Origin: Pseudomonadales bacterium
Lineage (GTDB): Bacteria; Pseudomonadota; Gammaproteobacteria; Pseudomonadales; Azotimanducaceae
Length of the DNA stretch: 64,000 nt
Assembly: GCA_041739525.1 (NCBI GenBank)
Contig: JBGSNQ010000165.1
Location: 14,706-78,705 of the forward strand
Reading direction: 5' to 3'
This document shows, piece after piece, positions 3,406 through 63,772 of the stretch (position 1 is the first letter of the stretch; each line of letters opens with the position of its first letter). Below the pieces are notes generated by a model. That model did not search any database. It had not been told where the DNA came from and worked only from the letters and a program-made list of their open reading frames with translations. Both the position numbers and the translations under genes were made by a program.

Positions 3406-3432
3406 AGGCGCGCCCACACCGGAGAGGAATTG

Positions 3433-4734
3433 ATGCAACTCGGACGCGTGTTGACCTTGTTGGCGTTCTTGATCGGCGCTCAACACACCTTGGCGGCCGA
3501 GGTGGCCGATGCTTCGCCTGCGGCCGACCCGACGCCGATCACGGAGTATCGGCTGCCGCCCGACAAGCTCGAAAAGTCGCAGGCGCTCTATCGCACCGGC
3601 GTGACGATGAATCTGTTCGCCACCGTCTACGGCATCGCGCTGCTCGTGGTGCTGCTGTCGCTTCGCGTCAGCGCGCGCATTCGCGATTTCGCCGAGCGCG
3701 TCAGCAAGCGGCGTTTCGTGCAGGTGATCATCTTCGCGCCGCTGCTGCTGATCCTGATCGACATCCTCACGCTGCCGTTGAGCATCTACGGCCAGGATCT
3801 GCAGATGAGCTATGGATTGTCGGTACAGGGTTGGGGATCCTGGTTCTGGGACTGGATCAAGGGCGAGATGATCGGCACCGTCATGGCCACGCTGCTCGTC
3901 TGGGGGCTATATGCGTTCCTGCGCCGCAGCCCGAAACGCTGGTGGCTTTACGGCTGGCTCGCATCCATTCCGGTGGTGTTGTTGCTGGTGCTGATCCAGC
4001 CCGTATTCATCGCACCGCTCTTCAATCACTTCGAACCGCTCGAAGCCAAACAGCCGCAGCTGTTGCCGGAGCTCGAAAAGGTGATGCATCGCGGCGGGCT
4101 GCAGATCGATCGCGCGCGCATGTTCGAGATGCAGGCGAGCGACAAGGTCACCACGTACAACGCCTACGTCACCGGCATCGGCGCGAGCAAACGCGTCGTC
4201 GTATGGGACAACACGTCGCGCGACATGACGATTCCGGAAACGCTGTTCGTGTTCGGCCACGAACAGGGCCACTACGTGCTGCATCACGTCTGGATGCAGC
4301 TCGGCTTTCTGATCTCGGGAATGTTGCTTTCGCTGTATCTGGCACACCGCTTCGCGGCCGGCGTGCTCGCACGATGGGGGCAGCGCTGGGGCATACGCGA
4401 CCTCGGCGACTGGGCGTCACTGCCGGTCATTCTCTTGTTGCTCAACGTCTTTTCGCTGGTCGGGCAACCGGTAAGCGCGGCGTTTTCGCGACATCTGGAA
4501 CATCAGGCCGACATTTATGGACTCGAAGTCATCCACGGCATCGTGCCCGACTCGCCTCAAGTCGCCGCGCACGCCTTCCAGAAACTCGGCGAGAAAGCAC
4601 TGTCGTATCCCGATCCGAATCCGCTGTACGTGATGTGGGCGTTCGGTCATCCGCCGATCGCCGACCGCATCGAGTTCGCTGCGCACTACCAACCGTGGAA
4701 CGACGGTCAACCCACGCGCTACATCGCGCAGTAG
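3433..4734 (+). CDS. M48-family zinc metallopeptidase, Ste24-type multi-TM architecture
   Basis: HEQGH zinc motif (HExxH), NAYVTGIGASKRVVVWD block, several hydrophobic helices and an N-terminal signal. GGAGAGG lies 5-6 nt upstream of the ATG. Confidence 0.85.
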   Translation: MQLGRVLTLLAFLIGAQHTLAAEVADASPAADPTPITEYRLPPDKLEKSQALYRTGVTMNLFATVYGIALLVVLLSLRVSARIRDFAERVSKRRFVQVIIFAPLLLILIDILTLPLSIYGQDLQMSYGLSVQGWGSWFWDWIKGEMIGTVMATLLVWGLYAFLRRSPKRWWLYGWLASIPVVLLLVLIQPVFIAPLFNHFEPLEAKQPQLLPELEKVMHRGGLQIDRARMFEMQASDKVTTYNAYVTGIGASKRVVVWDNTSRDMTIPETLFVFGHEQGHYVLHHVWMQLGFLISGMLLSLYLAHRFAAGVLARWGQRWGIRDLGDWASLPVILLLLNVFSLVGQPVSAAFSRHLEHQADIYGLEVIHGIVPDSPQVAAHAFQKLGEKALSYPDPNPLYVMWAFGHPPIADRIEFAAHYQPWNDGQPTRYIAQ

Positions 4735-6608: not shown

Positions 6609-7901
6609 GTGAGCCAGTTTGCCCGCATCGCATGGATCATCGTTGCAGGGTTTCTGGCGCTCGAGTTGATCGCATACGGCATTCGGGTACACGACGAAGG
6701 CGTTTCGAGCACGGGCGCCTACGCCGCATCCGTGGCGGATCGAGCAGTCACCCTCGACCGTTTGTTGGACGGTATATCGGCCGAGGAACAGCAACGCCTG
6801 CTGACGGCCGCATCGGGACCGGGCTTCCAGGTATCGCTGAGTGCAACCGAACCGCAACTGCCGCCGAACAGCTGGCGTCACGCCGACGAAATCTCCTCCG
6901 ATCTCGATGCGTATTTGAAACGCGCGGGTGCCGGCGGAACACGGATTGCCTTGTCGGAAAGGCGCACGGTCACCGTAGTGGTGCCGCGGCGCGCGAACGA
7001 CTATCTGGTGGTGCGCGCAGACGGCAGCGGACTCACTGCGCACGCGCGCCCGGCATTCATCGGCACGCTCACGACGCTGCTCGTTGCGGGCCTGGTGTTG
7101 TGGGCCACACGCCGATCGATCGGTCATCTGCCGCGCTTTGCCATCGCAGCTGAAGCGCTCGGTCGCAATGTGGCCGCACCGGAACTGGCCGAGACGGGGC
7201 CGCGCGAAGTACGACGTGCGGCCGTTGCATTCAACGAAATGGCGCGCCGCATCCGCGCCTATCTCGACGAACGTACACAGATGCTCGCCGCGGTCTCGCA
7301 CGACATCCGCACACAGCTCACGCGGCTTGCGATGCGCCTCGAATACGTAACGGATCGGAATCAGCAGGCTCGCGCCCGTGAAGACGTCGCGCAGATGACA
7401 CGCCTGCTCGACTCGGTGCTCGCGTTCTCGCGCGAGGATCGCGCCGAAGAGCCTTCGATTTCGCTCGACCTCGCTACGCTGCTCGACACGCTGGCGGACG
7501 ATGCACGCGGACTCGGCCATCGCGCCCAGTACCACGGTCCGATCCACTGCGTCATCGATGGTCGGCCCACCGCGTTGCGGCGTGCGTTCACGAACTTGAT
7601 CGATAACGCGGTGCGTTACGGCAGCGAAGCCGACATCACACTCCGGGCGGCGAACGACGATGCGTCGGTGATCGTAGAGATCGCCGATCGCGGACCCGGC
7701 ATCCCCGTCGAAGACCGTGCGCGCGTGCTGCGGCCGTTCCAGCGCGTGGAGCCGTCGCGCAACCGCTCGACCGGTGGCACCGGCCTCGGTCTTGCCATCG
7801 CACATACGGTGGTGACGCGACACGGCGGTTCGCTCGCATTCGTCGAACGACCCGGCGGCGGTCTGATCGTCCGGATTGCGCTGGGTCGCACGGCGCAATG
7901 A
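6609..7901 (+). CDS. sensor histidine kinase (EnvZ/CpxA-like)
   Basis: Two TM segments, a HAMP region, the H-box AAVSHDIRTQLTRL, N-box NLIDNAVRYG and G-boxes DRGPGI / GTGLGLAI. Starts 4 nt after the regulator stop. Confidence 0.9.
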   Translation: MSQFARIAWIIVAGFLALELIAYGIRVHDEGVSSTGAYAASVADRAVTLDRLLDGISAEEQQRLLTAASGPGFQVSLSATEPQLPPNSWRHADEISSDLDAYLKRAGAGGTRIALSERRTVTVVVPRRANDYLVVRADGSGLTAHARPAFIGTLTTLLVAGLVLWATRRSIGHLPRFAIAAEALGRNVAAPELAETGPREVRRAAVAFNEMARRIRAYLDERTQMLAAVSHDIRTQLTRLAMRLEYVTDRNQQARAREDVAQMTRLLDSVLAFSREDRAEEPSISLDLATLLDTLADDARGLGHRAQYHGPIHCVIDGRPTALRRAFTNLIDNAVRYGSEADITLRAANDDASVIVEIADRGPGIPVEDRARVLRPFQRVEPSRNRSTGGTGLGLAIAHTVVTRHGGSLAFVERPGGGLIVRIALGRTAQ

Positions 7902-10971: not shown

Positions 10972-11784
10972 ATGTTGAGTCTAACCAACGATTCACTAGA
11001 GGTGCAGCTGCTCGATCCAGCAGCGGACCGCCCGCGCTTCGGTGTGCGTTACTGCACCGGCGGTTACATCTTCCAGATCCGCGACCGCGTGCACGGCGAC
11101 CTGCTCAGCGGTCCGACGTTTCCTGACAGCTTCAACTGGTTCGACGGCCAGGGTATTCCGGACGCGTTCAATCTGGGTCCACTGAACTCGAACAAAACGC
11201 TCGGCGAAGCGCTGATCATCGGCATCGGCGTGTGCGACACGCAGGCGCGCACCGTCAAGTCGTTCAGCGATTGGCACGTCACGCGTGGTGCCGATTCGGT
11301 CGAGTTCGAAACCCGGCAGACTTACGAGGACTTTTCGCTGACCCTTTCGCGAACCGTTTCGCTGCACGAACGCACGATTCGTTCGCACACCACGCTCGCC
11401 AACGTCGGTAAAGCACCGGTGCCGATGCGCTGGTTCCCACATCCCTTCTACCCGCAAACCGCAACCGACGAACTGCTGTGGATCAACGCGCCGCTGAACT
11501 GGCGCGATGCCAACGGATATACCCGGCTGCGGAATGGTTTCATCGCGCGCACCGGGTGGCCGTGGCAAGACGGCCACTATCAGCCGCTCGACCACGATGC
11601 GACGGCACCGCTGATTCTGCTGCAACGACATCCCACGCTCGGCCTCGTTTCGGCAACGTGCAGCTACGTGCCGGACTATTTCCCCATCTGGGGCAATGCG
11701 GCGACCTTCTCGTGGGAGCCGTTTCTCGAACGCACGGTATTCCCGGGGCAGTCGTACAGCTGGTGGATCGACTATTCCTTCTGA
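10972..11784 (+). CDS. hypothetical protein (no motif I can name confidently)
   Basis: 270-aa ORF with coding-like composition. The ATG lies 4 nt after the stop of the transporter remnant. Confidence 0.55.
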   Translation: MLSLTNDSLEVQLLDPAADRPRFGVRYCTGGYIFQIRDRVHGDLLSGPTFPDSFNWFDGQGIPDAFNLGPLNSNKTLGEALIIGIGVCDTQARTVKSFSDWHVTRGADSVEFETRQTYEDFSLTLSRTVSLHERTIRSHTTLANVGKAPVPMRWFPHPFYPQTATDELLWINAPLNWRDANGYTRLRNGFIARTGWPWQDGHYQPLDHDATAPLILLQRHPTLGLVSATCSYVPDYFPIWGNAATFSWEPFLERTVFPGQSYSWWIDYSF

Positions 11785-12652
11785 AGTAAATGAAAGCGCG
11801 GCACGAGCCGCAGATGCCGTTCGTGCGAAATACTCGCTGGGTGCAACGCTAAACCGGTTCGAAGACGGCACCCTGCCGGTGTTCGCCGTCGACGACACCT
11901 GCGTCATCAAGCTGTTCCCGCCCGACGAACCAGCGCATTTCGAAACGGAACGCACTGCGCTCGCACGCATCGACGGTTCGCTGTCGATCCCGACACCGCG
12001 TCTGATCGAATCGGGGCAAATCGATGAGTGGTACTTCATCGCGATGACACGAATGACCGGCGAGACACTGTCGCGCGTGTGGCACGCAATCCCGCCCGGC
12101 GAACGTGTCGCATTGGCGCGACGTGTAGGCAAGGCGCTCACCGAACTGCATTCGATTTCGATCGACGACTGCGCCGCGCTCGTCGTCGACTGGCATGCGT
12201 TCATGCGCCAACAGCGCGACACAGTCACGGCGCGTCAGGCCGCAAAAGGTCTCGCGCCGCAGTGGCTCGATCAGGTGGACGACTTCCTCGATCGCTGGAT
12301 GCCGCACGACGACGGACGGCGCGTGCTGCTGCACACCGAAGTGATGCGCGAACATCTGCTCGCCGAGCATCGCGATGGCGCATGGCGCCTCACCGGACTG
12401 GTCGACTTCGAACCGGCGATGATCGGCGCACCGGAGTACGAATTCGCGTCGGTAGGTCTCTTCGTGGGCTGCGCCGAACCAGGGTTGTTCGCGACCGCGC
12501 TCGACGCCTATGGCATCGAACTAGAACCGGAGCGAACGATGGCGTACGCGCTGCTGCATCGCTACAGCCATTTGCGCTGGTATCTCGAACGCTTACCGCA
12601 CGACTCGAACACCACGCTCGAATCGCTCGCGCACAGGTGGTTCGGTTGTTGA
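11696..12652 (+). CDS. aminoglycoside/choline-kinase-type phosphotransferase family protein (start uncertain)
   Basis: Kinase-like layout with ...VIKLFPP..., LLHTEVMREHLL in the catalytic-loop position and GLVDFEPAMIG as the DFG-like motif. The only in-frame start upstream of the N-lobe is ATG 11696, which overlaps the previous gene by 89 nt. Confidence 0.65.
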   Translation: MRRPSRGSRFSNARYSRGSRTAGGSTIPSEVNESAARAADAVRAKYSLGATLNRFEDGTLPVFAVDDTCVIKLFPPDEPAHFETERTALARIDGSLSIPTPRLIESGQIDEWYFIAMTRMTGETLSRVWHAIPPGERVALARRVGKALTELHSISIDDCAALVVDWHAFMRQQRDTVTARQAAKGLAPQWLDQVDDFLDRWMPHDDGRRVLLHTEVMREHLLAEHRDGAWRLTGLVDFEPAMIGAPEYEFASVGLFVGCAEPGLFATALDAYGIELEPERTMAYALLHRYSHLRWYLERLPHDSNTTLESLAHRWFGC

Positions 12653-16427: not shown

Positions 16428-18228
16428 CGATCTGCCGCCGGCCCTCCCGGCGATGTGGCGCGCGCTGAAGCGCGGCTATCAGGCCGAACCGCGGCTGCTG
16501 ACGATCTCGTTTTCGCTGTCGTTGCTCGCAGCATTGCCAGACGCATTGATCGCGCTGCTGTTCATGCTGCTCGCCAACGGCGTTACGGCCCATAACGAAA
16601 AGCTCGTCATCGGCGCGATGCTGGGGCTCGCCACCTGCGCTGTGGCCACCTGGTTCCTGCGCGTCGTCAGCGACCGCACGCAACGCCGCTTCCGCGACCG
16701 CGTGACGATTGCCCTCGAATCGCACGTGGCGAAGCTGCAGGCGTCGGTGCAGACGATCGCGCACCACGAGCGGCCGGATTTTCTCGACCGCCTCGCGGTG
16801 CTGCGCGACCAGGTCTTCGTGCTCGACCACATGTACATGTCGCTGTTCTCCACGTGCGGCTGGATTCTGCGGCTCGGCGTCACGATCGTGCTGCTGATGT
16901 CGATCCACTGGGCGCTGGCGCTGCTGGTTCTGTTCGCGCTGCCGACGGTACTCACGTCCACATGGCGTCCGGCGGTGGAACGGGCGGCCGAAGAGCGCGG
17001 CGCCTCTGCAAACCGGTTGGCGCGCCATCTGTTCAATACTGCGACGACGGCCCCACCCGGCAAGGAAGTGCGCGTTACGCGCATCGGCGAACGGCTGGTG
17101 GAACAGCGCCGCGCGGCGTGGATGCGCTGGTACGCTCCGGTCGCCTCGGCGCGCACCGGCAGCGCGTTGTGGCACTCCGTGGGTTGGGCGGTGTTTGGTG
17201 CCGCATACATCGGCGCAGTCGTATTCGTGTCGTCGGGTCTCGGCGGCACCGCGGGCCAGGTATTGCTGGTGTTAGCGGCGGGCTCGCGGCTCTCGGCCTA
17301 CATCGGCGCAACCGTCGGTGAGATCGGCTTCCTGCGCGGCATCTGGATGGACGGTTCGCGCCGCCTCGCGTGGCTCGAGGACTACGCGGCGTCGATCAGC
17401 GAAAACGCCGACGCGGCGGTGCCGGAGCGACTGAAAGGCGGCATCCGCTTCGACCACGTGTCGTTCGCGTATCCGGGCACCACACGCAAAGTGCTCGACG
17501 ACGTCAGCTTCGAACTGCAACCCGGTACTGTCGTTGCCGTGGTGGGTGAAAACGGCGCCGGCAAAAGCACACTGGTGAAGCTGCTGTGTCGCCTCTATCA
17601 GCCGACGCAAGGCCGAATTCTGATCGACGGCGTCGATCTGGCACGTATTCCCGCAGACGGCTGGCGCGAGCGGCTCGCCGGCGCCTTCCAGGATTTCTTC
17701 CGCTTCGAATTCCAGGCGCGCCATACCGTGGGTGTTGGCGACGTGCCGCGACTCGACGATCAACCGGCCGTTTCGGTGGCCGTCGACCGCGCCGGTGCCG
17801 CCGACGTGGTCGAGCGTCTGATCGAAGGACTCGCAACACAACTCGGGCCTACCTGGCCCGGCGGCGTCGAAGTCAGCTTCGGCCAGTGGCAAAAGCTCGC
17901 CCTCGCCCGCGGCTTCATGCGCGACCGGCCGCTGTTGTTGGTGCTCGACGAACCGACCGCCGCGCTTGATGCCGAAACGGAACACATGCTGTTCGAACGT
18001 TACGCCGAAGCCGCGCGCGGAGGGTTTCGTGACGCCGGCTCCTCTGCCACGCCGGAGGGCCGCATCACGATTCTCGTGTCGCACCGCTTCAGCACCGTGC
18101 GTATGGCCGATCTCATCGTTGTGCTCGACGGTGCGAAGCTGGTCGAAATCGGCTCGCACGAAGCGCTGATGGCGAAAGGCGGTCAGTACGCGGAACTGTA
18201 CGGCATTCAGGCGGCGGCCTATCGGTAA
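16414..18228 (+). CDS. ABC transporter, fused permease/ATP-binding subunit (partner, degenerate signature)
   Basis: The ATG overlaps the upstream stop region. Walker A GENGAGKST, signature-like SFGQWQKLALARGF and LLVLDEPT. Likely heterodimer with 14619-16427. Confidence 0.9.
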   Translation: MSSVDDLPPALPAMWRALKRGYQAEPRLLTISFSLSLLAALPDALIALLFMLLANGVTAHNEKLVIGAMLGLATCAVATWFLRVVSDRTQRRFRDRVTIALESHVAKLQASVQTIAHHERPDFLDRLAVLRDQVFVLDHMYMSLFSTCGWILRLGVTIVLLMSIHWALALLVLFALPTVLTSTWRPAVERAAEERGASANRLARHLFNTATTAPPGKEVRVTRIGERLVEQRRAAWMRWYAPVASARTGSALWHSVGWAVFGAAYIGAVVFVSSGLGGTAGQVLLVLAAGSRLSAYIGATVGEIGFLRGIWMDGSRRLAWLEDYAASISENADAAVPERLKGGIRFDHVSFAYPGTTRKVLDDVSFELQPGTVVAVVGENGAGKSTLVKLLCRLYQPTQGRILIDGVDLARIPADGWRERLAGAFQDFFRFEFQARHTVGVGDVPRLDDQPAVSVAVDRAGAADVVERLIEGLATQLGPTWPGGVEVSFGQWQKLALARGFMRDRPLLLVLDEPTAALDAETEHMLFERYAEAARGGFRDAGSSATPEGRITILVSHRFSTVRMADLIVVLDGAKLVEIGSHEALMAKGGQYAELYGIQAAAYR

Positions 18229-18248
18229 GGGCGTCGTTCGCGACGCCC
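18229..18248. terminator. GC-rich hairpin between convergent genes
   Basis: GGGCGTCG-ttcg-CGACGCCC starts immediately after the ABC stop codon. There is no clear T-tract. Confidence 0.4.
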
Positions 18249-18262
18249 CACCGACACCGCGT

Positions 18263-19153
18263 CTATGCTACTGATACGCGGCGGCCGACGAAGGCCACCT
18301 GTTCGTCGTAGAAGCGCCGAATGTTATGTGCGATCTGCTCTAGACAGTCCTCCACCGCGAAGTGACCAGAATCCAGCCGATGGATCTCCGCATTCGGAAG
18401 GTCGCGCAGATACGCTTCACCGCCTTCGCGGGTGAAGAAGATGTCGTCCTGTCCCCAGAAGATCAGCGTGTGGGGTTGGCGCGTTCGGAGAAACGCCTGC
18501 CATTTCGGATACAGGTCGACGTTGGTTCGGTAGTCGTAGAACAGGTCGAGATGCACGCGTCGGGCATGCGTGCGCTCCATGAAACGGAAGTCCATGTTCC
18601 AGTTGTCGGGGCTGATGAGTTCAGGCTGCTTGTGGCCGTGCACGTACACCATGCGGATACCGTCGAGTGCGAGAAACGGCATGAGTGCTGCTTCCGTTTC
18701 GGCATCGCGCCGCTTCCACAACGCATGCCGGATGCCATCCCATGCGGTGGTGAATCCCTCCTCGTACGCATTCGTGTTCTGCAGAATCAGCCACTCCGCC
18801 CATTCCGGATGGCGCGTCACGATTCGGAATCCGACCGGTCCGCCGTAGTCCTGCATGAAGAGACCGAATCGGTCGAAGCCAACGTGCGTGAGGAGTCCTT
18901 CGACGATTTCAGAGAAGCGGTCGAACGTGTACGGAAAAGCGGCCGGATCCGGCATGTCGGTGTTGCCGAATCCGGGATAGTCCGGCGCGATGACGTGAAA
19001 TTTATCGGCCAGCGCCGGGATGAGATTGCGGAACTGGTGCGATGAGGCCGGGAAACCTCCCAGCAGCACCAGCTTCGGTGACCTAGGATCTCCTGCCTCC
19101 CGGTAAAACACCGAGAGTCCCTGGATGATCGCCGTCTTGCTGAGCACGTTCAT
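18263..19153 (-). CDS. alpha/beta-fold hydrolase (epoxide hydrolase/haloalkane dehalogenase-like)
   Basis: 296 aa with LLGGFPASSHQFRNLIP...APDYPGFG...QDYGGPVG in the nucleophile-elbow region. Confidence 0.85.
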   Translation of the reverse strand: MNVLSKTAIIQGLSVFYREAGDPRSPKLVLLGGFPASSHQFRNLIPALADKFHVIAPDYPGFGNTDMPDPAAFPYTFDRFSEIVEGLLTHVGFDRFGLFMQDYGGPVGFRIVTRHPEWAEWLILQNTNAYEEGFTTAWDGIRHALWKRRDAETEAALMPFLALDGIRMVYVHGHKQPELISPDNWNMDFRFMERTHARRVHLDLFYDYRTNVDLYPKWQAFLRTRQPHTLIFWGQDDIFFTREGGEAYLRDLPNAEIHRLDSGHFAVEDCLEQIAHNIRRFYDEQVAFVGRRVSVA

Positions 19154-19218
19154 TTGGCTTTACCTGATGAGTAGAAGTTCGTTCCTTGCAGCTGCGTCGA
19201 TATCGCAGCGGAACCAAG

Positions 19219-19268
19219 TAGACAAGTCTGTCTATTCCATGTCAAGGGAAAATAGACAAGTCTGTATA
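19219..19268. promoter_or_regulatory. twin operator-like palindromes in the hydrolase/TetR divergent intergenic region
   Basis: TAGACAAGTCTGTCTA (19219-19234) and TAGACAAGTCTGTATA (19253-19268), in an AT-rich spacer. Confidence 0.5.
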
Positions 19269-19309
19269 TTTTTTTGCCAAGCCCGGCGCATCCGTTCTAA
19301 GCTGCTCAT

Positions 19310-19873
19310 ATGGCATCGATGAAACGCGATCACCTGCTCGCTACCGCGTGGCGGCTCTTCTATCGCGACGGCTATCGCGCGGTGGGCATCGACACGCTGC
19401 TGGCCGAAGCGAACGTCGCAAAGATGACGCTCTACAATCACTACGCTTCGAAAGACGAGCTCATCGTCGACGTGATCAAACGGCGCAGCGAAGAAGTGCT
19501 CACCGGTCTGCGTGAAGCCGCCGAGGCTGCCGGCAATTCGCCGGAGCGTCGCTTGCTCAGCGTGTTCGACTGGCTCAAAGATCTGTTCGCCGGCGATGAC
19601 TTCATGGGATGCGCGTTCATTCGCGCGCTGAGCGAGTTCCCCGACACGGACCATCCTGTGCATCGCGCGGCGTGGACTCACAAGATGGCCGTCCGAAACA
19701 TGCTGAAAGGTCTGGCAACGGATGCAGGTGCGAAGAATCCTGGCGCACTCGCCGATTCGCTGAGGCTGCTGATCGACGGCGCGTTGGTCGCGGCGCACGC
19801 GACAGGTACGACCAAGCCCGCGACCGTCGCCCGTCAGGCAGCCGCGAGTCTGCTCGCGTCCGCCCGCGGCTGA
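19310..19873 (+). CDS. TetR/AcrR-family transcriptional regulator
   Basis: N-terminal HTH (LFYRDGYRAVGIDTLLAEANVAKMTLYNHYASKDEL), 187 aa. Confidence 0.9.
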   Translation: MASMKRDHLLATAWRLFYRDGYRAVGIDTLLAEANVAKMTLYNHYASKDELIVDVIKRRSEEVLTGLREAAEAAGNSPERRLLSVFDWLKDLFAGDDFMGCAFIRALSEFPDTDHPVHRAAWTHKMAVRNMLKGLATDAGAKNPGALADSLRLLIDGALVAAHATGTTKPATVARQAAASLLASARG

Positions 19874-20859
19874 TGAGTAGCTCTACCGTCATTCGCCGAC
19901 TCGTTGCCGCAGACGCGAAGGCGTTGGTTGCGTGCTTCCAACGTTGCTACGGCGAGACATATCCGAACGACGATTTCTACGACGTATCTCGCCTGGTGCA
20001 GCGCATCGAGATGGGTTCGTTGCGCTCGGCCGTCGCGATCGCCAACGACGGCACTCTGGTGGGCCATACGGGACTCAGCGTTCGGCATTCGGACGCCAAA
20101 GCGATCGAAGCCGGTAACACCGTGGTCGATCCGGCGTGTCGCGGGCAGGGTCTCTTGGCGCGACTCGCCGCGCTGCTGAACCAACTGTGCACGGAGGCCG
20201 GTTACCTCGCCTACCTGCACTACCCCACCTGCGCGCACGAAATCATGCAGATAAGTTCGGTGCGCAGCGGCTTCGAAACAGGCCTGATGCTCGACTACAT
20301 CCCGGCAGAAACCGACTACCGCGAGATCGATCGCGGCGAAGGCCGCGTTGCCGCGACGGTGGCGTACCAGCCGATTGCTCCGGCACCGCACCGCACGCTG
20401 CGGATCGCGCCTCGCTATTTCGACGTCGCACGGCAAGTCTACGACGCGGCATCACTCGACCGATCGCTGCGGCTTGCCGACGACTCCACAGCGTCGCGAA
20501 CCACGAGACTGACCGCCTCGTTCGGCAAGCGGCGCGGCTTGCAGCATGTGCACGTTGACGCGATTGGCAGCGATTTCACGCACGCCATCATGGCCGCATC
20601 GCGTGGCGACGCTGCGGTGAGCCACGTCGACCTGTGCCTCGACGATCCCGGAGTGACAATTGCAGTGGAAGAACTGCGCAGGATGGGCTATCTCTTCTGC
20701 GCGCTATTGCCGGAGTTCGCGCACACTGACGTGTTGCGCATGCAACGGCTCGCCTCTCCCGGCGCCAGTTCGTTCACGCCGCAGCTCGCAAATGCCGGCG
20801 CCATCGACTTGTTGGCGCGCATGCGTCGCGAGCAGGAAGGAACGAACAGCGTCTTCTGA
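19873..20859 (+). CDS. GNAT-family N-acetyltransferase with C-terminal extension
   Basis: The ATG overlaps the TetR stop (TGATG). Acetyl-CoA motif region VVDPACRGQGLLARL. 328 aa. Confidence 0.6.
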   Translation: MSSSTVIRRLVAADAKALVACFQRCYGETYPNDDFYDVSRLVQRIEMGSLRSAVAIANDGTLVGHTGLSVRHSDAKAIEAGNTVVDPACRGQGLLARLAALLNQLCTEAGYLAYLHYPTCAHEIMQISSVRSGFETGLMLDYIPAETDYREIDRGEGRVAATVAYQPIAPAPHRTLRIAPRYFDVARQVYDAASLDRSLRLADDSTASRTTRLTASFGKRRGLQHVHVDAIGSDFTHAIMAASRGDAAVSHVDLCLDDPGVTIAVEELRRMGYLFCALLPEFAHTDVLRMQRLASPGASSFTPQLANAGAIDLLARMRREQEGTNSVF

Positions 20860-21596: not shown

Positions 21597-21698
21597 CCCT
21601 TCCGATTTCCACCCGATGGTTTCATACGGCTGGTGCTGCTTCCATCGCTTCGGATGTCGGGCTACATTGATTCTGCTTGGGGGTCAGAGGGAGACAAG

Positions 21699-22544
21699 GT
21701 GATCAATCCTGCAGAACACAACGTTACGAGCGGCCGGCTCAAAACGGATGAGTTGAAGTGCCTCGAGCAAAACGGTTACGTGGTGCGTGAGAACGTATTC
21801 ACACCGAAGGAAATCGCAGAGATTACTGCGGCGTGCGAAGCGCTGGTGGACCGATTCGTTCAGGAGCGCCGTCGTAAGCGCTACCCCGTCGGCAGCTACA
21901 CGTTCGAACCGAACAACGAGCACTTGATCATGATCAAGTGGGAAGGCGACACCGACATCGTGCACGGCCTCGAACCGTTCGCGCATCTCGATCCCGTCAT
22001 CAATCGCTGGGCGACAGACGATCGCTTCATCGCACCAATGTGCGATTTCGTCGGCGACGAGCACCCGGTTCTGTTCACCGAGAAACTAAATCTGAAACGT
22101 CCTGGCTACGGCGGCGTGAACCCGATGCACCAGGACTATCCGTACTGGATCGGCGAAGCAAAGGATCCCGTCAGAGTTGCAACCGCCATGTTGTTCCTCG
22201 ACGACGCAACGCTCGAGAACGGTTGTCTGCAGGTGGCGCCCGGCAGTCACCGTTCCGGGCGATGGCAGAATCGGACCGACTCCGACGAGTTCGGCGCCAA
22301 CGAGATCGACGCATCCGCTTATAAGGATGTAGTGATGCAGCCGCTGCCGTTGAAGGCGGGATCGATGGTGATGTTCGGCTCCATGCTCGTACACAGCTCC
22401 GAAGCCAATCGATCGAAACTCGAAAGACGCGCGCTGTTGTTTAGCTACCAGCCCGCCGGGTATCCGCACATGGTCGAGAAAATGATCGCCGACAAGGAAG
22501 CTTACCGACGCGCGAAAGCCGAGCGCGAAGCGAAGGCAGGTTGA
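21699..22544 (+). CDS. phytanoyl-CoA dioxygenase (PhyH) family Fe(II)/2-oxoglutarate oxygenase
   Basis: MHQDYPYW (HxD) ... LVHSSEANRS (distal His, Arg). GTG start preceded by GAGGGAG. ATG 21654 is an alternative start. Confidence 0.8.
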   Translation: MINPAEHNVTSGRLKTDELKCLEQNGYVVRENVFTPKEIAEITAACEALVDRFVQERRRKRYPVGSYTFEPNNEHLIMIKWEGDTDIVHGLEPFAHLDPVINRWATDDRFIAPMCDFVGDEHPVLFTEKLNLKRPGYGGVNPMHQDYPYWIGEAKDPVRVATAMLFLDDATLENGCLQVAPGSHRSGRWQNRTDSDEFGANEIDASAYKDVVMQPLPLKAGSMVMFGSMLVHSSEANRSKLERRALLFSYQPAGYPHMVEKMIADKEAYRRAKAEREAKAG

Positions 22545-58296: not shown

Positions 58297-59127
58297 ATGC
58301 GTCTCGAAGGCACCGTCGCAATGATCACCGGTGGTGCATCCGGTTTGGGGCGCGCGGTGGCGGAGCGCTTCGTCGCCGAAGGCGCACGCGTCGTCATACT
58401 CGATCGCTCGGAAGCACGCATCGCCGAACTCGTTGCGAAGTATCCCGACCGGGTACGCGGCATCGCGGGCGACGTGCGCGATCTCGCGGCGAACAAACGT
58501 GCGGTTGCGGATGCAGTGGCCGCATTCGGGCGCCTCGACGTGCTCGTTGCAAACGCGGGTATCTGGGACTACGGCTGCGCGCTGGTCGATCTGCCGGAGG
58601 ACCGCATCGACGAAGCATTCGACGAACTGATCGGCATCAACGTGAAAGGCTATCTTCTCGCGGCCAAAGCGGCGCAAGGCGCGCTGGTGGAATCGAAAGG
58701 TTCAATGATATTCACCGTGTCGAATGCCGGCTTCTTTCCTGACGGCGGCGGCCCGTTGTACACCGCTTCGAAACACGCTGCGGTTGGGCTGATCCGGCAA
58801 CTCGCGTTCGAATGCGCGCCACACGTGCGCGTCAACGGCGTTGCGCCGGGCGCAATCGCGACGGACCTGCGAGGCCCGCGCGCGCTCGACATGGCAGATC
58901 GCTCGATCGGCAGCGTGCTGAAACCGGAGATGATGAAAGGCGGATTACCGATCGACCGGCTTCCGGTGCCGGAGGACTACGCGGCAGCGTTCGTGTTTCT
59001 TGCCGCACGCGGCGAGTCCAGTCACGCGACGGGCAGCATCATCAACATCGATGGTGGTTTCGCGGCGCGTGGCGTGAGTCGTGTGCGTGGAGGCGACGCG
59101 TTGCCGGAGGTGTTCGGCGCGAAATAG
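58297..59127 (+). CDS. SDR, cis-dihydrodiol dehydrogenase type (BphB/HcaB-like)
   Basis: ITGGASGLGRA...NAGIWDY...INVKGY...SNAGF.P.GGGPLYTASKHA.VGL.RQ.AFE.AP.VRVNGVAPG. Closely parallels the BphB sequence as I recall it. Confidence 0.8.
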   Translation: MRLEGTVAMITGGASGLGRAVAERFVAEGARVVILDRSEARIAELVAKYPDRVRGIAGDVRDLAANKRAVADAVAAFGRLDVLVANAGIWDYGCALVDLPEDRIDEAFDELIGINVKGYLLAAKAAQGALVESKGSMIFTVSNAGFFPDGGGPLYTASKHAAVGLIRQLAFECAPHVRVNGVAPGAIATDLRGPRALDMADRSIGSVLKPEMMKGGLPIDRLPVPEDYAAAFVFLAARGESSHATGSIINIDGGFAARGVSRVRGGDALPEVFGAK

Positions 59128-59244
59128 AACAGTGCGGCTCAGGAGAACTGTTGGGCTGTCACTCGGCTTGAAGGCGCCTGCATCGAACCAGACGCCCTCG
59201 TAACCTGGGCATGGCAATCGCGTCACGCATTTGGAGTCAGACTC

Positions 59245-59652
59245 ATGAGCACTGAAACTGAAGCACTCAAACAGTTCTTCGCCGCAATCAATCGCAATGA
59301 CATGCAGGCCATTATGAAGGACTTCGATCCTCAGGTTGTGCGCATTGAGCCGGAAGGTTTTCCAACGGCCGGCACCTACCGGGGTATCACGGAAGTGCAA
59401 GCGCACGTCGCGAAAGGCCGTGGTACGTGGGCGGAAGGGGCCTGCGAGCCGGAAAGGTTCCTGCTGAATGGAGATAAGGTGGTCGTGTACCTCCATGTTC
59501 GGGTTCGCCTAAAGGACGCAACCGATTGGGTTGACGGACGATTTGCCGATGGTTTCGTGTTCCGCAACGGCAAGATCATCCAATATCTGTCCTTTGGGGA
59601 ACGAGCGGATGCCCTCGAGTGGGCCGACATCGAAGAGCAGCAGGCGACTTGA
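59245..59652 (+). CDS. SnoaL-like/NTF2-fold protein
   Basis: 135 aa. ...LKQFFAAINRNDMQAIMKDFDPQVV... is the typical N-terminus of the SnoaL/ketosteroid-isomerase-like fold. GGAG RBS upstream. Confidence 0.7.
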   Translation: MSTETEALKQFFAAINRNDMQAIMKDFDPQVVRIEPEGFPTAGTYRGITEVQAHVAKGRGTWAEGACEPERFLLNGDKVVVYLHVRVRLKDATDWVDGRFADGFVFRNGKIIQYLSFGERADALEWADIEEQQAT

Positions 59653-59661
59653 GACCGCACA

Positions 59662-60021
59662 CTACTCCTTCTCTGTAACGAGATGGACTATCGACGATGG
59701 ACTGGTGAGCCAGAATCCCGGGTAATCCTTCGGAAGTGGTTCGACCCCATCGCAGCGCACGAAATCCGCTTGTTCGATGTATCCTGCAGCCGCCTTCGCG
59801 TCAGGCACTATCAACTCCAGCCAGATCTCCGCGTGGCCAAGGTTTGCGACACTGTCTACGTGTAGGTTCATGGGACCGAATTGAAACGTAACGCTTGCTG
59901 GAGATCGCTCGAGTATCGGAATGCCCAGCCGAACATAGCTCTCAACAGTTGCATCAAACTGATGAGCCGGAACCTTCATCGCGATGTTCCTGCCCCCTCT
60001 GAATGCGGGCTTTTCATGCAT
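59662..60021 (-). CDS. VOC (glyoxalase/bleomycin-resistance-fold) family protein
   Basis: ~119 aa from MHEKPAF. The beta-alpha-beta-beta-beta-like pattern is assigned only by general resemblance. Confidence 0.5.
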   Translation of the reverse strand: MHEKPAFRGGRNIAMKVPAHQFDATVESYVRLGIPILERSPASVTFQFGPMNLHVDSVANLGHAEIWLELIVPDAKAAAGYIEQADFVRCDGVEPLPKDYPGFWLTSPSSIVHLVTEKE

Positions 60022-60157
60022 GTTGCGTACCTCTTCTTGTTCGCCTAGCAACTAGGGCGAGGGGCCAGTACTACGCTCTGCACATCCTGACTTGATGACC
60101 GACTCGGCACGGCTGTTGCGGCGGCCACGCGGAGCCTTGTTGTGGTCCGGTCCACGT

Positions 60158-60658
60158 CTAGTTGCCTTCATCAGGCTGAAATGCGGATGACGAAAGAAAA
60201 TCCACGTTTTTCGCGCTCCCATGCTCGAACAACTCCGCCGCTTCCAGGATTGCAGCGACCTCTGCGGGCGAGTACTGCGCATCGAAGGAGTCGCGCATCT
60301 CGCTCACGTTGCACTCCTTGCGATGTAGGCATGCCAGGTAGCCCCAAGTCTCTCCGACGACGTCGCTCGAGCCCGAACCCTCGGCGGGGTACCTGTAAGA
60401 GAACATGTATGCCGCCTCGTACAACCTAAAGTCGGACGTCACCCGATCGTCCAATTCGTCAGGTGAGAACTGGTCCAACTGTCCCGACCAAGCTACGTCG
60501 TCCTGATTCGCGTATTGATCCCAATCTTGGTACGACCCTACCGGCGCGCAAGTCTCAATTGTCTCCGCGATGATCAGCATGCTTGCCGCATCACCACTTT
60601 CCGCGCGGAGGATGTGAGCATCGAATTTCGCTTTTAGATCGTAGTGCGCGGCACCCAA
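60158..60658 (-). CDS. hypothetical acidic protein (start uncertain; possibly the 3' part of a frameshifted secreted-protein gene)
   Basis: 166-aa ORF with only a TTG start. Its frame is open upstream to ~60745 without a start codon. The overlapping ORF 60634-60858 encodes a signal-peptide-like N-terminus in another frame. Confidence 0.4.
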   Translation of the reverse strand: MGAAHYDLKAKFDAHILRAESGDAASMLIIAETIETCAPVGSYQDWDQYANQDDVAWSGQLDQFSPDELDDRVTSDFRLYEAAYMFSYRYPAEGSGSSDVVGETWGYLACLHRKECNVSEMRDSFDAQYSPAEVAAILEAAELFEHGSAKNVDFLSSSAFQPDEGN

Positions 60659-60889
60659 TGATGCCTGCTGCAGTTCCTGACCTCCGCAGTCGAATCGGGA
60701 GGTCGGGCGACGTTCACCGGCCTTGGAATCTGAACATGATTCTGCGGCTCAGTGACTTCGTACGAATCCTGGTCATTTTGGATTCCAACGATCTGCTCGT
60801 GTACTGGCACGAGCACGCCGCCGATCAACAGAAGTCCAACCAGCCACTTGTATTGCATCGAAGGATACTTGTGAAAACAGATTTGATGA

Positions 60890-60923
60890 TCGCTGGGGCG
60901 TCGCCTGCATGCAGCCGTTAGGC
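60890..60923 (-). other. attC-like L'-R' half-site (third copy; partner half unclear)
   Basis: GGGGCGTCGCCTGCATGCAGCC-GTTAGGC aligns with the same end of the sites at 61350-61447 and 61970-62067. The GTTAGGC core overlaps the stop codon of the 4-TM ORF. Confidence 0.35.
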
Positions 60924-61331
60924 GGCTCTCCTTGACGTCTTACTAGAAGGCTCACCCGAAAAAAACGAGATCAGCCCACAGATCAGCCCGATGACTGCAA
61001 CAACATCGAGTGCCCCAATCCAAATGGTGAGCTCGAGATGCGGAATCGGACCATTCGTTGGGCGATCGAGAAGCTCGACGTGGCCCATGAAGCTGTAGGT
61101 GAACAGTGCGATTGTGAGTATCCATGTGGCAATCAGCAGGATTCGTGCAAACGAGCGGCCCTTTACTGAGAGATATCCAAAGAGCACGAGCAAACCAGCA
61201 AAGAGATAGTCGAACGTGTAGCTTGTCCAATGGCCCCAATCAGCCCAGTTTCGTCGTGTTTCACCGAAGACGAGGAAGATACCGAAGGCGATACCGAGCC
61301 AAGCGCTGATTCTCAGGTACTTGGAATTCAT
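60918..61331 (-). CDS. small integral membrane protein (4 TM), hypothetical
   Basis: 137 aa with four hydrophobic helices. The ATG lies 18 bp after the attC-like site. Confidence 0.6.
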   Translation of the reverse strand: MNSKYLRISAWLGIAFGIFLVFGETRRNWADWGHWTSYTFDYLFAGLLVLFGYLSVKGRSFARILLIATWILTIALFTYSFMGHVELLDRPTNGPIPHLELTIWIGALDVVAVIGLICGLISFFSGEPSSKTSRRAA

Positions 61332-61349
61332 CTCAAGACCTCCCAGGGC

Positions 61350-61447
61350 CGCTAACCATCAGTATCAGGCGCGCGCGCGACAGGCGACAAGTTTGCGAGT
61401 GCAGATTGGATGACCACCTGCGGGTCGGCTGCATGCAGTGGTTGGCC
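61350..61447 (-). other. attC-like recombination site (98 bp)
   Basis: CGCTAAC...GTTGGCC ends. Imperfect internal complementarity with bulges. Both halves align with the site at 61970-62067. Confidence 0.5.
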
Positions 61448-61530
61448 GACAGATCCCGCGAACGATCCAACATGTGTCGGGGGTCGAGCGTGCACACCTG
61501 CGACAGTTGCTTGGTCCGGCCCAAACTGCA

Positions 61531-61956
61531 CTAGGCGTCATCAGCAACGATGATCGGAAGCACAGCCTCTACCAAGTCCACAACGGACAACTCAGGAAGC
61601 GTCTGCAAAGGGTGCCATTGGCACAAGTCGGTGGTGCCGTCACTCTCGTTTCGAAGCACTCCGCCAATCAGCTTCGTGTAGTAGATGATCCGAATACCGT
61701 GAAAGGCGCGGTCAGGCGTTTCATCAGTGATGGAGTCGATGCCCGCCAAACTGACAGCGGCAACGATCAAGCCAGTCTCCTCCTCAACCTCCCGAACCAT
61801 TGCCGCCTCGGGGTGCTCGCCGAAGTCAATGCCACCGCCGGGAAGCGTCCACATCCCCGCTTCTGGCACACGGTCTGAGAGTCGGCAAAGCAGAAGATGG
61901 TCGTTGTCTATCACAAGACCGTACGCAGAGATTCGGGTGACGTTTAGTTTGGCCAT
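61531..61956 (-). CDS. NUDIX hydrolase
   Basis: Nudix box GGGIDFGEHPEAAMVREVEEETGL. 141 aa. Confidence 0.85.
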   Translation of the reverse strand: MAKLNVTRISAYGLVIDNDHLLLCRLSDRVPEAGMWTLPGGGIDFGEHPEAAMVREVEEETGLIVAAVSLAGIDSITDETPDRAFHGIRIIYYTKLIGGVLRNESDGTTDLCQWHPLQTLPELSVVDLVEAVLPIIVADDA

Positions 61957-61969
61957 TGCGACGATCGGC

Positions 61970-62067
61970 GCCTAACAACAGAGTTGAGCGGCACGCCAGA
62001 CAGGCGGCAGATTCGGATATGCGAATTTGACGACTGTCTGCGCGTCGGCATCATGCAAAGGTTAGGC
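61970..62067 (-). other. attC-like recombination site (98 bp)
   Basis: GCCTAAC (61970-61976) and GTTAGGC (62061-62067) are perfect reverse complements matching RYYYAAC/GTTRRRY. Inner arms pair with single-base bulges (..TTGA-GCGGCACGC-CAGACAG.. vs ..CTGTCTGCGCGTCGGCATCAT..). Central ATTCG-gatatg-CGAAT. Confidence 0.6.
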
Positions 62068-62155
62068 GAACCTACCTCAGAGCACCCCATCCGAACTTCC
62101 TCGCCCGAAAGTCGACGCTGCGCCGCCTATCTTCGTTCGACCCGTTCGCTCGAAC

Positions 62156-63514
62156 TCAACCGTTCTTCCCCAACGCAGCAGCAACGCGCGCGCGAACCTC
62201 GGGGTCCATCAACCGCTCGAAGGGCACCAGCAAATGTCCGACTTCATTCGACAACTTGCGCAACTCCACATCGCGCGATGCCGCAATCTGAATCTGCATC
62301 CGGTACTGCATCTCTTCAGGTGTGAACATGTCGCGGTTGCCCTGCGTAGTTGGATACAGGAAGTCGTTGTAGTTGGCCTGCCGCCACGGCATTCGTGCTG
62401 CTTCCGCCGCGCGCATGAGATACGTGCGCGTCAGTTCGTCGAGCGAATCTCCCGGCGCGCGCCGCGCAAGCGTATCGAACAGTGCTTCCGCCTGTAGCGC
62501 AGCAGACGTCATGCCCTGTCCGTAGGTCGGATTGAAACTGCACAGCGCATCGCCCACCGGAATGAATCCACGCGGCAACGACTCCGATCGTTCGTAGTGC
62601 CTGAACCGGTTCGCGGGATAAATCATGCGCGCTACACCGGATAGGAACCTGGCGCCCCGTAACGCTTCGTACATCGTCGGATGCGGCAGACTCTTTGCGA
62701 ATTCGAGGAAGTCGGCTTCGTTGTCGGGCGGATAGTCGCCGGCGCGGCCGCCCAACGAGCAGATGAAGCGGCCGCCTTCGATCGGCAGCAACACCGCCCC
62801 GCGCGCGCCGACACGCGGCAGGTTGCCCATCGCAAGCGCCTTCCAGTCGCGCGTGGGATCGTCGGGCAGTTCGACGACGGCGCTCGAATAGCCGAAGTCC
62901 ACCGACACCTCTTCGACTTCCGGAAGCGGCACACCGAGCGCAGAGAGCCACCGCAGGCCGCCTTCGCCGCGCCCCGTTGCATCGATGACGAGATCGGCAT
63001 CGAGGTCCACGGTGCCGTTCTGCGTCTCCACCTTCACACCGGTGATCCGGTTGGCGGTCGCGTCGTAGTTCAATCCGCGCACGGTATTGCCGGTGCGCAA
63101 CTCGACGACGGGCGTCGATGCGAGCACGCGTTGCCGGATACAGTGTTCTAGCATCCAGCGGCTTTGGCCGTGCAGTTCCATGCCGGCGTCCCAACGCGGC
63201 GCGAAGCCGAGTTCGGATCCCGCGAGAAAATCGAGACCTGCGCGAATCGTCACCGAGCCGCTCTCTTCGATGGCGCTGCGGAAGCCGGGCAGGATCCGGT
63301 CGATGGCGTTCTCGCCGCCTTTCAACAGCATGTGCACATGATGCGACTGCGGCGTGGTGCGACGCGGCGCCGGTGAGTCGGTGAACACATCGCGTTCGAG
63401 CACGACCACTTCGACGAAATGCAGCGCAACCGCGCGTGCCGCCAGCATGCCGCCGAGACTGCCGCCGGCGATGACGGCGCGATGGCCGAGCGATTTCTGA
63501 GGTGTGTTCGTCAC
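62156..63514 (-). CDS. FAD-dependent oxidoreductase/monooxygenase
   Basis: N-terminal dinucleotide-binding AVIAGGSLGGMLAARA. ~452 aa. GTG start preceded by AGGAAG; TTG 63553 is an alternative. Confidence 0.8.
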   Translation of the reverse strand: MTNTPQKSLGHRAVIAGGSLGGMLAARAVALHFVEVVVLERDVFTDSPAPRRTTPQSHHVHMLLKGGENAIDRILPGFRSAIEESGSVTIRAGLDFLAGSELGFAPRWDAGMELHGQSRWMLEHCIRQRVLASTPVVELRTGNTVRGLNYDATANRITGVKVETQNGTVDLDADLVIDATGRGEGGLRWLSALGVPLPEVEEVSVDFGYSSAVVELPDDPTRDWKALAMGNLPRVGARGAVLLPIEGGRFICSLGGRAGDYPPDNEADFLEFAKSLPHPTMYEALRGARFLSGVARMIYPANRFRHYERSESLPRGFIPVGDALCSFNPTYGQGMTSAALQAEALFDTLARRAPGDSLDELTRTYLMRAAEAARMPWRQANYNDFLYPTTQGNRDMFTPEEMQYRMQIQIAASRDVELRKLSNEVGHLLVPFERLMDPEVRARVAAALGKNG

Positions 63515-63772
63515 TACTGCTTCCTGTGATTCGTCGATCGATTCAACTTGCAACGCGTTATAAATTCAAAGCGCCCGGCGTTATAGACCGGCCCTACACG
63601 CGAGTCAACCGTGTGCCCGATCCGGACCCGTCGGTACGGATCGACCTCCACGGCCGCCAACCTCTGCACGACCCAACGACTCGAACAAAGGGGCAACCGC
63701 ACACGATCTCGCTTCGAATCGCGTGTTTCTCTACCGTCCCACCTGCGTGACTCGCTAGAATCCGCCGCACAC

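Follow-up and report, generated by a model that had tools for sequence, protein, structure and literature searches.

The 64,000-nucleotide stretch of a Pseudomonadales genome analysed here (the window; contig JBGSNQ010000165.1, positions 14,706 to 78,705) very probably carries, at a probability that we put near 0.9, a piece of an integron cassette array, ~3.0 kb long, that sits where two convergent core genes of an uncultured soil gammaproteobacterium meet at their 3' ends. The strain-specific insert spans positions 59122–62141, with the cassette top strand corresponding to the minus strand of the window. The locus falls within the published definition of an attC-site cluster without integron integrases (CALIN), namely two or more attC sites that share a strand, lie less than 4 kb from each other and have no integrase nearby (PMC4889954). 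A first-pass annotation, made from the sequence alone, had described a CALIN-like, integron-type cassette array, and this description is borne out by covariance-model matches at two attC sites (A and B), by cassettes shared with integrase-linked arrays and by relatives that lack the array. Read along the minus strand, the insert consists of ~60–75 nt of unmatched sequence, attC A, a NUDIX hydrolase gene, attC B, a gene for a four-transmembrane (4-TM) protein, attC C, a disrupted 308-aa gene, the decayed attC D, a gene resembling the vicinal oxygen chelate (VOC) family, an inverted SnoaL gene and a final 117 nt.

The boundaries of the insert were defined by alignment to a relative (L129; loci from other assemblies carry L numbers), whose DNA homology ends at window position 59121 and restarts at 62142. 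Both junctions lie a few nucleotides from the stop codons of the flanking short-chain dehydrogenase/reductase (SDR) and FAD-dependent monooxygenase genes, and the segment delimited in this way closely matches the bounds of 59128–62155 proposed earlier. The visible drop in GC content reported at ~59.13–62.15 kb is also present, with values of 0.53–0.59 across 59.0–62.4 kb against 0.61–0.67 in the flanks, and the 1-kb bins at 59–62 kb (0.563–0.573) form the sole run of three consecutive low-GC bins in the window. The insert as a whole has a GC content of 0.563, compared with 0.631 for the rest of the window and 0.56–0.585 for attC arrays in metagenome-assembled genomes (MAGs). Codon usage follows the same pattern, the GC content at third codon positions (GC3) being 0.60–0.68 in five insert open reading frames (ORFs) and 0.72–0.82 elsewhere, so that the insert is lower than its surroundings in both of the measures that the first-pass annotation had recommended.

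The two 98-nt elements attC A (61970–62067) and attC B (61350–61447) lie on the plus strand, which is the bottom strand of the cassettes, with their starts 620 nt apart, and align over the full 98 nt with 66% identity. As had been noticed from the sequence, they carry RYYYAAC- and GTTRRRY-like ends. The R' core of A, GCCTAAC (61970–61976), pairs with the R'' complement GTTAGGC (62061–62067) at 7/7 positions, while in B the R' core CGCTAAC (61350–61356) pairs with GTTGGCC at 6/7 positions including one G-T pair. The right-hand ~56 nt are present once more, in a third copy that ends at 60924 and belongs to attC C (60822–60923, plus strand), 425 nt beyond B. The R''-L''-half-variable terminal structure part of C (60865–60926) is conserved and its L'-R' arm has diverged; the cores GCCTAAC and GTTGATC form only four Watson-Crick pairs and one wobble pair. 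The R' core of C reads GTTGATC on the top strand (60822–60828), the first 10 codons of the next gene overlap the L'-R' arm, and the GTTAGGC core (R'') contains the stop codon of the 4-TM ORF. A 24-nt motif common to A, B and C occurs three times in the window, against zero expected. When the window was searched with an nhmmer profile of 54 foreign sites, from which all window sequences had been excluded, only three places matched: B (60.3 bits) and A (59.7 bits), both over the full length, and C (35.5 bits), over model positions 43–105 only. The third copy previously placed at 60890–60923 therefore exists and does overlap the 4-TM stop codon, but only its R''-L'' half is significantly conserved.

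Site D (60043–60133, plus strand; GCCTAGC ... GCCACGC) has both conserved triplets mutated, AAC to AGC and GTT to GCC, and for this reason is regarded as a probable dead remnant. It occupies the position of the attC site that precedes the VOC homologue in L079 (1870–1971), and its alignment score to that site was matched by only 4 of 2000 shuffles. A weak fourth candidate had been proposed at ~60043–60121; it is indeed weak by a profile of A, B and C run over the 64 kb, where it is the best other match (60045–60104, E=0.75), yet the alignment to the L079 site speaks for it. The ORFs that follow A, B and D start 13, 18 and 21 nt past these sites, in agreement with the promoterless spacing of 12–22 bp given by the first-pass annotation.

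To model the family with its structure, we used a covariance model (CM), R1, built from 47 diverse attC sites of integrase-linked arrays, again excluding window sequences, and scanned the window with filters off. RNAalifold supplied only the central stem of the R1 structure, and the R and L boxes were added by hand and checked by pair counting. Site A scored 69.5 bits (E=1.5e-16) on the plus strand and 37.1 bits on the minus strand, and site B scored 63.4 bits (E=7e-15) and 14.7 bits, respectively; beyond A and B, no match with E<0.2 was obtained over the 64-kb window. The attC-model check suggested earlier, carried out here with an equivalent CM, thus recovers both sites on the expected bottom strand. 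The cassette ORFs lie on the minus strand, and the attC sites score and fold better on the plus strand, opposite the cassette coding strand. A gathering-threshold scan of the window with Rfam, which holds no attC family, returned no match.

The structure itself is well supported by the family alignment, in which 89.8% of cells pair compared with 25–39% in slid-partner controls, and two-sided (compensatory) changes occur in 24/39 pairs, a number reached by 0/500 shuffles. The consensus folds to −46.9 kcal/mol on the bottom strand (z=−10.7) and −37.7 kcal/mol on the top strand; in the consensus fold, one T and one C of the 3' arm (R''-L'') stay unpaired. Folding of the bottom strands of A and B, also proposed earlier, gave a divided result. 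As single-stranded DNA, site A folds to −28.9 kcal/mol on the plus strand (z=−5.1) and −20.8 kcal/mol on the minus strand (z=−2.1), whereas site B folds to −19.8 (plus) versus −14.2 kcal/mol (minus) and on neither strand differs from shuffles (z=−0.06 and +1.40). The unpaired T and C are kept in both sites. Of the 39 model pairs, A forms 30, with a perfect R box and a mostly broken L box, and B forms 32; B keeps most of the L-box pairs and A has 6/10 assigned pairs broken.

The parent family of these sites was found in other genomes. A scan of one genome per species with the motif GTCGSCNNCATGCANNNGTTRGSC matched at least 115 stretches. Among the matches listed, which did not include the source genome itself, many are singles, at about chance level by our own estimate, and several are 8-kb blocks with 2–8 copies spaced 0.5–1.8 kb apart. 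These array blocks derive from MAGs labelled 'uncultured Gammaproteobacteria bacterium' (MFD02979.bin.2.32, MFD00822.bin.2.176, MFD05684, MFD05513 and MFD02134) and a few others, and their copies are ~96% identical to one 98-nt consensus, GCCTAACAGCCAGCATCAGCCGCGCACCAGACAGGCGGCAAATTTGCGTATGCAAATTTGATGACTGGCTGGGGCGTCGGCTGCATGCAGTGGTTAGGC. Sites A, B and D are 78%, 77% and 58% identical to this consensus, respectively. Homologues of the integron integrase IntI, 52–55% identical to IntI1 by tblastn, are encoded beside the arrays in L039, L088, L086, L043, L113 and L028. The L088 protein (329 aa) matches the NCBIfam model TIGR02249, 'integron integrase', with 463 bits (cut-off 265), and an attI-like junction, GCCTAAC (1243–1249), lies ~300 nt from the start of its gene. 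One contig comprises L039, L034 and L030 as consecutive blocks; it begins with intI, which is followed by more than 15 sites over more than 17 kb. In L039 and L088, the motif is on the strand opposite the cassettes, that is, the bottom strand, as it is in the window. The 86 segments between attC sites of these arrays have a median length of 579 nt, and the top strand, as expected, carries the longest ORF in 62 of them. In MFD02134.bin.2.176 and MFD00822, arrays are found on several contigs.

A search of the literature with part of the 98-nt consensus did not find it, and this family of highly homogeneous attC sites of uncultured soil Gammaproteobacteria is apparently undescribed so far. A related MAG, MFD02134.bin.2.176, which includes the relative L131/L122, carries sites and arrays of the family, as does MFD00822; the window organism is therefore a member or a near relative of the lineage to which the family belongs. 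Family copies also occur in MAGs labelled Candidatus Eisenbacteria (near-consensus copies), Sulfurifustaceae and Planctomycetia (somewhat lower-scoring), among L043, L033, L073, L113 and L120, and shorter-stem variants are found in Sinimarinibacterium and Nevskiaceae MAGs. This spread over differently labelled MAGs could reflect either horizontal spread of integrons or binning errors.

The cassette genes of the insert connect it to these integrase-linked arrays. The NUDIX hydrolase gene (61531–61956, minus strand, 141 aa; Pfam NUDIX, E=1e-18) encodes a protein with 80% amino acid identity to an ORF inside an intI-linked array (L034, 3707–4075), and at the DNA level the region 61506–62068 is 77.6% identical to L034 3573–4135. 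The VOC/glyoxalase-like gene (59662–60021, minus strand, 119 aa) has a counterpart with 81.5% amino acid identity within the attC array of L079 (1490–1849). It has no direct match in Pfam, NCBIfam or PDB, and since 28 of the 62 members of its homologue alignment (A5) match the Pfam family Glyoxalase_6, the VOC label holds only by transitivity. The SnoaL_2-domain gene (59245–59652, plus strand; Pfam SnoaL_2, E=1e-12) is the last gene of the insert, runs opposite to the array and converges on the VOC-like gene. Over its first 135 nt it shares 86% identity with L079 2127–2261, a segment between two attC sites, whereas in the window no attC follows it, neither nhmmer nor the CM detecting a site in 59122–59244.

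The 4-TM gene (60918–61331, minus strand, 137 aa) shows four hydrophobic stretches by eye and belongs to no Pfam family. Its 41 homologues are mostly on short metagenome contigs. In L013, the homologue follows a different attC of the family (R1, 39.9 bits, on the strand opposite the gene), and homology to that locus reaches upstream only to 61360, 4 nt past the R' core of site B; such an end of homology at site B is the behaviour expected of a mobile cassette. A metagenome scan with the 4-TM alignment returned seven loci, of which only L013 has a family attC. Two further homologue contexts, L003 (1–20411) and L004 (1–20426), are 20-kb runs of at least 30 small, mostly co-directional genes separated by gaps of 0–60 nt, with cargo typical of cassettes (GFA, glyoxalase, DUF1801, NUDIX, GNAT, YjbR and SnoaL); no repeat family and no R1 match were detectable in either. 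A third context, L005, is an ordinary operon, and the 4-TM family is thus not confined to cassettes.

The remaining two ORFs are pieces of one gene. ORF74 (60634–60858, minus strand) overlaps ORF166 (60158–60658, minus strand) in another frame, and together they correspond to a single ORF in L079 (544–1464, 306 aa) and L132 (2185–3111, 308 aa), with homologues in the attC arrays of L079, L038, L057 and L034 and no Pfam or NCBIfam family. Relative to L132 (SRR26457508), which is 97–98% identical overall and has the intact gene, the window has lost 1 nt near 60682 and ~221 nt near 60450 (60448–60452), two deletions that inactivate the gene. An independent assembly, L001, has the same sequence as the window at both lesions, and the lesions are also present in Logan SRR28170474. 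The agreement of the independent assembly indicates that the 308-aa cassette gene is truly broken in this strain. The gene calls of the first-pass annotation thus held for the SnoaL and NUDIX genes and for the four hydrophobic stretches and, by transitivity only, for the VOC gene; the ORF that it had called an acidic hypothetical, ORF166, is present but is a fragment of the 308-aa gene broken by the two deletions.

The flanks of the insert are conserved core genes. To the left, the BphB/HcaB-like SDR gene (58297–59127, plus strand; Pfam adh_short, E=2e-48) is convergent with the array and syntenic in L129 and L130, and its matches among PLSDB plasmids carry the annotation bphB/hcaB, in keeping with the BphB-like SDR named earlier. 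A blastn search of 57–64 kb against PLSDB gave no plasmid match for the insert, the flanks matching only bphB/hcaB and major facilitator superfamily (MFS) genes. To the right, the FAD-dependent monooxygenase gene (62156–63517, minus strand, 453 aa) has the same direction as the cassettes. Its Pfam matches are below threshold, an exact look-up of the protein gave no record, and its homologues are 79–94% identical in conserved synteny, where CorA adjoins the monooxygenase as the first-pass annotation had read it. The order CorA-monooxygenase-[slot]-SDR-MFS-luciferase-L-PSP is conserved in L129 and partly in L130 and L131.

In these relatives, the slot is differently filled. It holds a beta-lactamase-fold gene (2675–3892) in L129 (monooxygenase with 94% amino acid identity), TauE (11378–12064) in L130 (84%), and TauE (11194–11949) followed by an amidohydrolase instead of SDR-MFS in L131 (79%). 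The comparison with related genomes that had been called for therefore shows flanks 79–94% identical and no array at the slot, and the position downstream of the monooxygenase is a variable spot occupied by the cassette array, a beta-lactamase-fold gene or TauE. The same array is present in the same slot, at 97–98% identity, in other samples (L132, L133 and one JGI contig listed without its DNA). On L131, which shares its contig with L122 (MAG MFD02134.bin.2.176), four family attC sites form a separate cluster at 17476–19983 (29–109 bits, all on one strand), 6–9 kb from the monooxygenase and among PEMT, ECF sigma factor and GNAT genes; the DNA of this cluster has no counterpart in the window.

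The array is decaying: site D has lost its triplets, the L arms of site A are mismatched, one gene is broken and neither edge is a canonical cassette boundary. The 5' arm of A (AACAGAGTTGAGCGG) is of a second L-arm subtype, as in L101_1661 and L110_2407, and its 3' arm is of the main type, which makes A a hybrid site; the combination of two L arms of different types accounts for its poorly paired L box. With intI, attI and the cassette promoter Pc all absent here, the array would presumably be static, and its expression would depend on read-through from the co-directional monooxygenase gene. Scans of the insert found promoter-like and terminator-like sites no more often than chance, the terminators being fewer than the chance expectation. 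Established integron biology suggests that an IntI provided in trans could recombine the folded bottom strands of A, B and possibly C and so release the NUDIX and 4-TM cassettes as circles, which could reinsert at an attI.

As to its arrival, we think it more likely that part of the lineage's own chromosomal integron was moved here, through rearrangement or homologous exchange between relatives, and was trimmed afterwards than that a clean IntI-mediated insertion took place. Of the origins that have been considered for CALINs (PMC4889954), the best fit is that part of an array was rearranged or transferred and then decayed. The edges bear on this choice: the layout of a single attC × attG event, which would open with TTRRRY and an ORF and close with an attC, is the opposite of that observed.

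The main alternative is that IntI itself placed the array, through recombination of a multi-cassette circle with a secondary genomic site (attC × attG), the route to single attC sites lacking integron-integrases (SALINs) or small CALINs, followed by deletions at both ends; we consider this unlikely, though worth keeping in view. The route has been established experimentally (bioRxiv 10.1101/2022.09.11.507474) and is listed by Cury et al. among the possible origins of CALINs (PMC4889954), and the lineage has both functional-looking integrons and other small attC clusters in variable spots, such as the four sites at 17.4–20.0 kb of L131. An IntI insertion, however, should begin with TTRRRY and the first ORF and end with a complete attC, whereas the upstream edge consists of the ~60–75 nt of unrelated sequence followed by the full attC A, and the downstream edge of the last 117 nt after SnoaL, without any attC. 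Later deletions at both ends would be needed, and neither junction sequence has a match in the fetched arrays.

Two further observations concern the exchange of parts of attC sites. Two L-arm subtypes occur in the family, one with CAGCATCAGCCG pairing with CGGCTGCATGC and the other with GGAGTTGAGCGG pairing with CCGCTCCAAC. Mismatched combinations within single sites are found in the window (61970–62067), in L110 (~2305–2407) and in L097 (~4294–4397), with L101 (~1661–1757) also involved. Because exchange by crossover at R' cannot yield them, these mismatched arms suggest homologous recombination within the conserved central attC stem. The second observation concerns the 308-aa gene, whose start (the first ~10 codons, M-Q/R-Y-x-x-L-x-G-x-x) falls within the L'-R' arm of the attC before it. 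The junction of half-site and ORF start (window 60822–60858, L034 ~6885–6985, L038 7222–7320, L057 4039–4135 and L079 1464–1430) is conserved in five arrays despite different upstream cassettes, at odds with the canonical model in which the L'-R' arm travels with the upstream cassette. In the window and in L038, the predicted crossover G|TTG falls exactly before an in-frame TTG codon.

These hybrid sites (A in the window, L110_2407 and L097_4397), together with the non-canonical edges and the gene start inside an attC arm, hint at exchange without IntI. They raise the speculative and, on balance, rather improbable idea that the lineage runs a 'distributed' integron, consisting of an intI-linked homogeneous array and many small attC clusters in variable slots, with cassettes also moving by IntI-independent homologous exchange through the central stem. 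If this were so, such exchange would give cassettes a second way to spread and CALINs a second way to arise.

That the array is instead the distal part of a complete integron with intI just outside the window is very unlikely. To the right of site A the window extends for no more than 1.9 kb, and related MAG arrays exceed 17 kb (the L039/L034/L030 contig). Against this, the core genes that border the array at both edges are syntenic in three relatives, CorA-monooxygenase on the right and SDR-MFS-luciferase on the left. The orientation of the cassettes would put attI and intI on the monooxygenase side, but this side is taken up by CorA and by the conserved monooxygenase gene (453 aa), whose 3' end borders the upstream edge of the array. 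No further attC and no IntI or IntI remnant was found in the 64 kb, the best tblastn matches having E values of 0.79 (IntI1) and 5 (L088 IntI), and no attI-like junction is present at the locus, which agrees with the earlier statement that neither intI nor attI is recognisable on either side. Of the two alternatives left by the first-pass annotation, an integrase-less attC cluster or the distal part of a larger array, the former is supported for this locus and the latter is rejected, because both edges abut conserved core genes.

Least probable of all, and close to negligible, is the idea that the 98-nt elements are dispersed palindromes of the repetitive extragenic palindrome or miniature inverted-repeat transposable element kind, as also raised in the first-pass annotation, or terminators, that merely resemble attC: they are intergenic imperfect palindromes, the family occurs in MAGs labelled with different taxa and single copies exist (for example L122 6779–6877, but with three weaker CM sites 1.4–2.4 kb away on the same contig, L131), yet within the 64 kb all copies are confined to the insert, elsewhere the copies are uniformly oriented, one small ORF apart, in cassette-spaced arrays beside TIGR02249 integrases with an attI-like junction, the RYYYAAC/GTTRRRY ends and the strand asymmetry fit attC, no T-run follows any element, the terminator scan fell below chance and Rfam gave no match.

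Several points weigh against reading the locus as a displaced cassette-array fragment. R1 tests membership of one attC family rather than attC-ness in general, and with the full-length model site C reaches only 13.1 bits (E=0.59), while site D is not significant with nhmmer or the CM in scans of the window. Sites A and B, at 77–78% identity to the consensus, stand well below the array copies, which average 96%, and A may be inactive, as its L box is largely unpaired. The matches of the IntI1 probe were validated afterwards by NCBIfam. The searches for intI and for repeat copies in the source genome cover the 64-kb window, and in the part to the right of the array, where 1.9 kb is visible, the absence of intI rests on the synteny of relatives.

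Elsewhere in the window, a second, smaller GC dip was observed at 21684–22469 (0.572 in the 21–22 kb bin). It contains two adjacent minus-strand ORFs of 126 and 127 aa (GC3 0.61) beside an ankyrin-repeat protein; the two ORFs belong to no Pfam family and are not alike, and no attC was found in the dip.

The Vibrio cholerae superintegron, with its VCRs, and the Xanthomonas integrons are examples of sedentary chromosomal integrons whose attC sites are homogeneous. The parent MAG arrays resemble these in having more than 15 cassettes, ~96% identical attC sites, a GC content below that of the core and cargo that is mostly of unknown function or encodes small enzymes. Unlike them, the window locus has no intI, attI or Pc, and its attC sites have diverged to 58–78% of the consensus. 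It shares with SALINs and attC × attG insertions (Loot et al., bioRxiv 10.1101/2022.09.11.507474) the presence of cassettes outside an integron platform, in an ordinary chromosomal intergenic region, but differs in having several cassettes rather than one and edges that lack the structure of a single attC × attG event.

The closest likeness is to CALINs, of which 83% have under six attC sites and 95% have no intI pseudogene nearby (PMC4889954); the window array likewise has few cassettes, cargo of non-resistance or unknown function and no intI pseudogene nearby. CALINs are common and already well known as a kind, and the array, which carries no resistance genes and no known trait, is an ordinary new example that matters little in itself. 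It shows explicit decay, with a presumably dead site (D), a hybrid site (A) and a broken gene, and nothing categorical sets it apart. It is unusual for a CALIN in that related genomes reveal both its parent attC family and arrays of that family that bear an integrase. The value of the locus is that of a well-documented case, because the parent family, the integrase arrays, an empty-site relative and near-identical strain variants with the intact or the broken gene are all in hand, and it could serve as a natural case study of how cassette arrays become stranded outside an integron and then decay.

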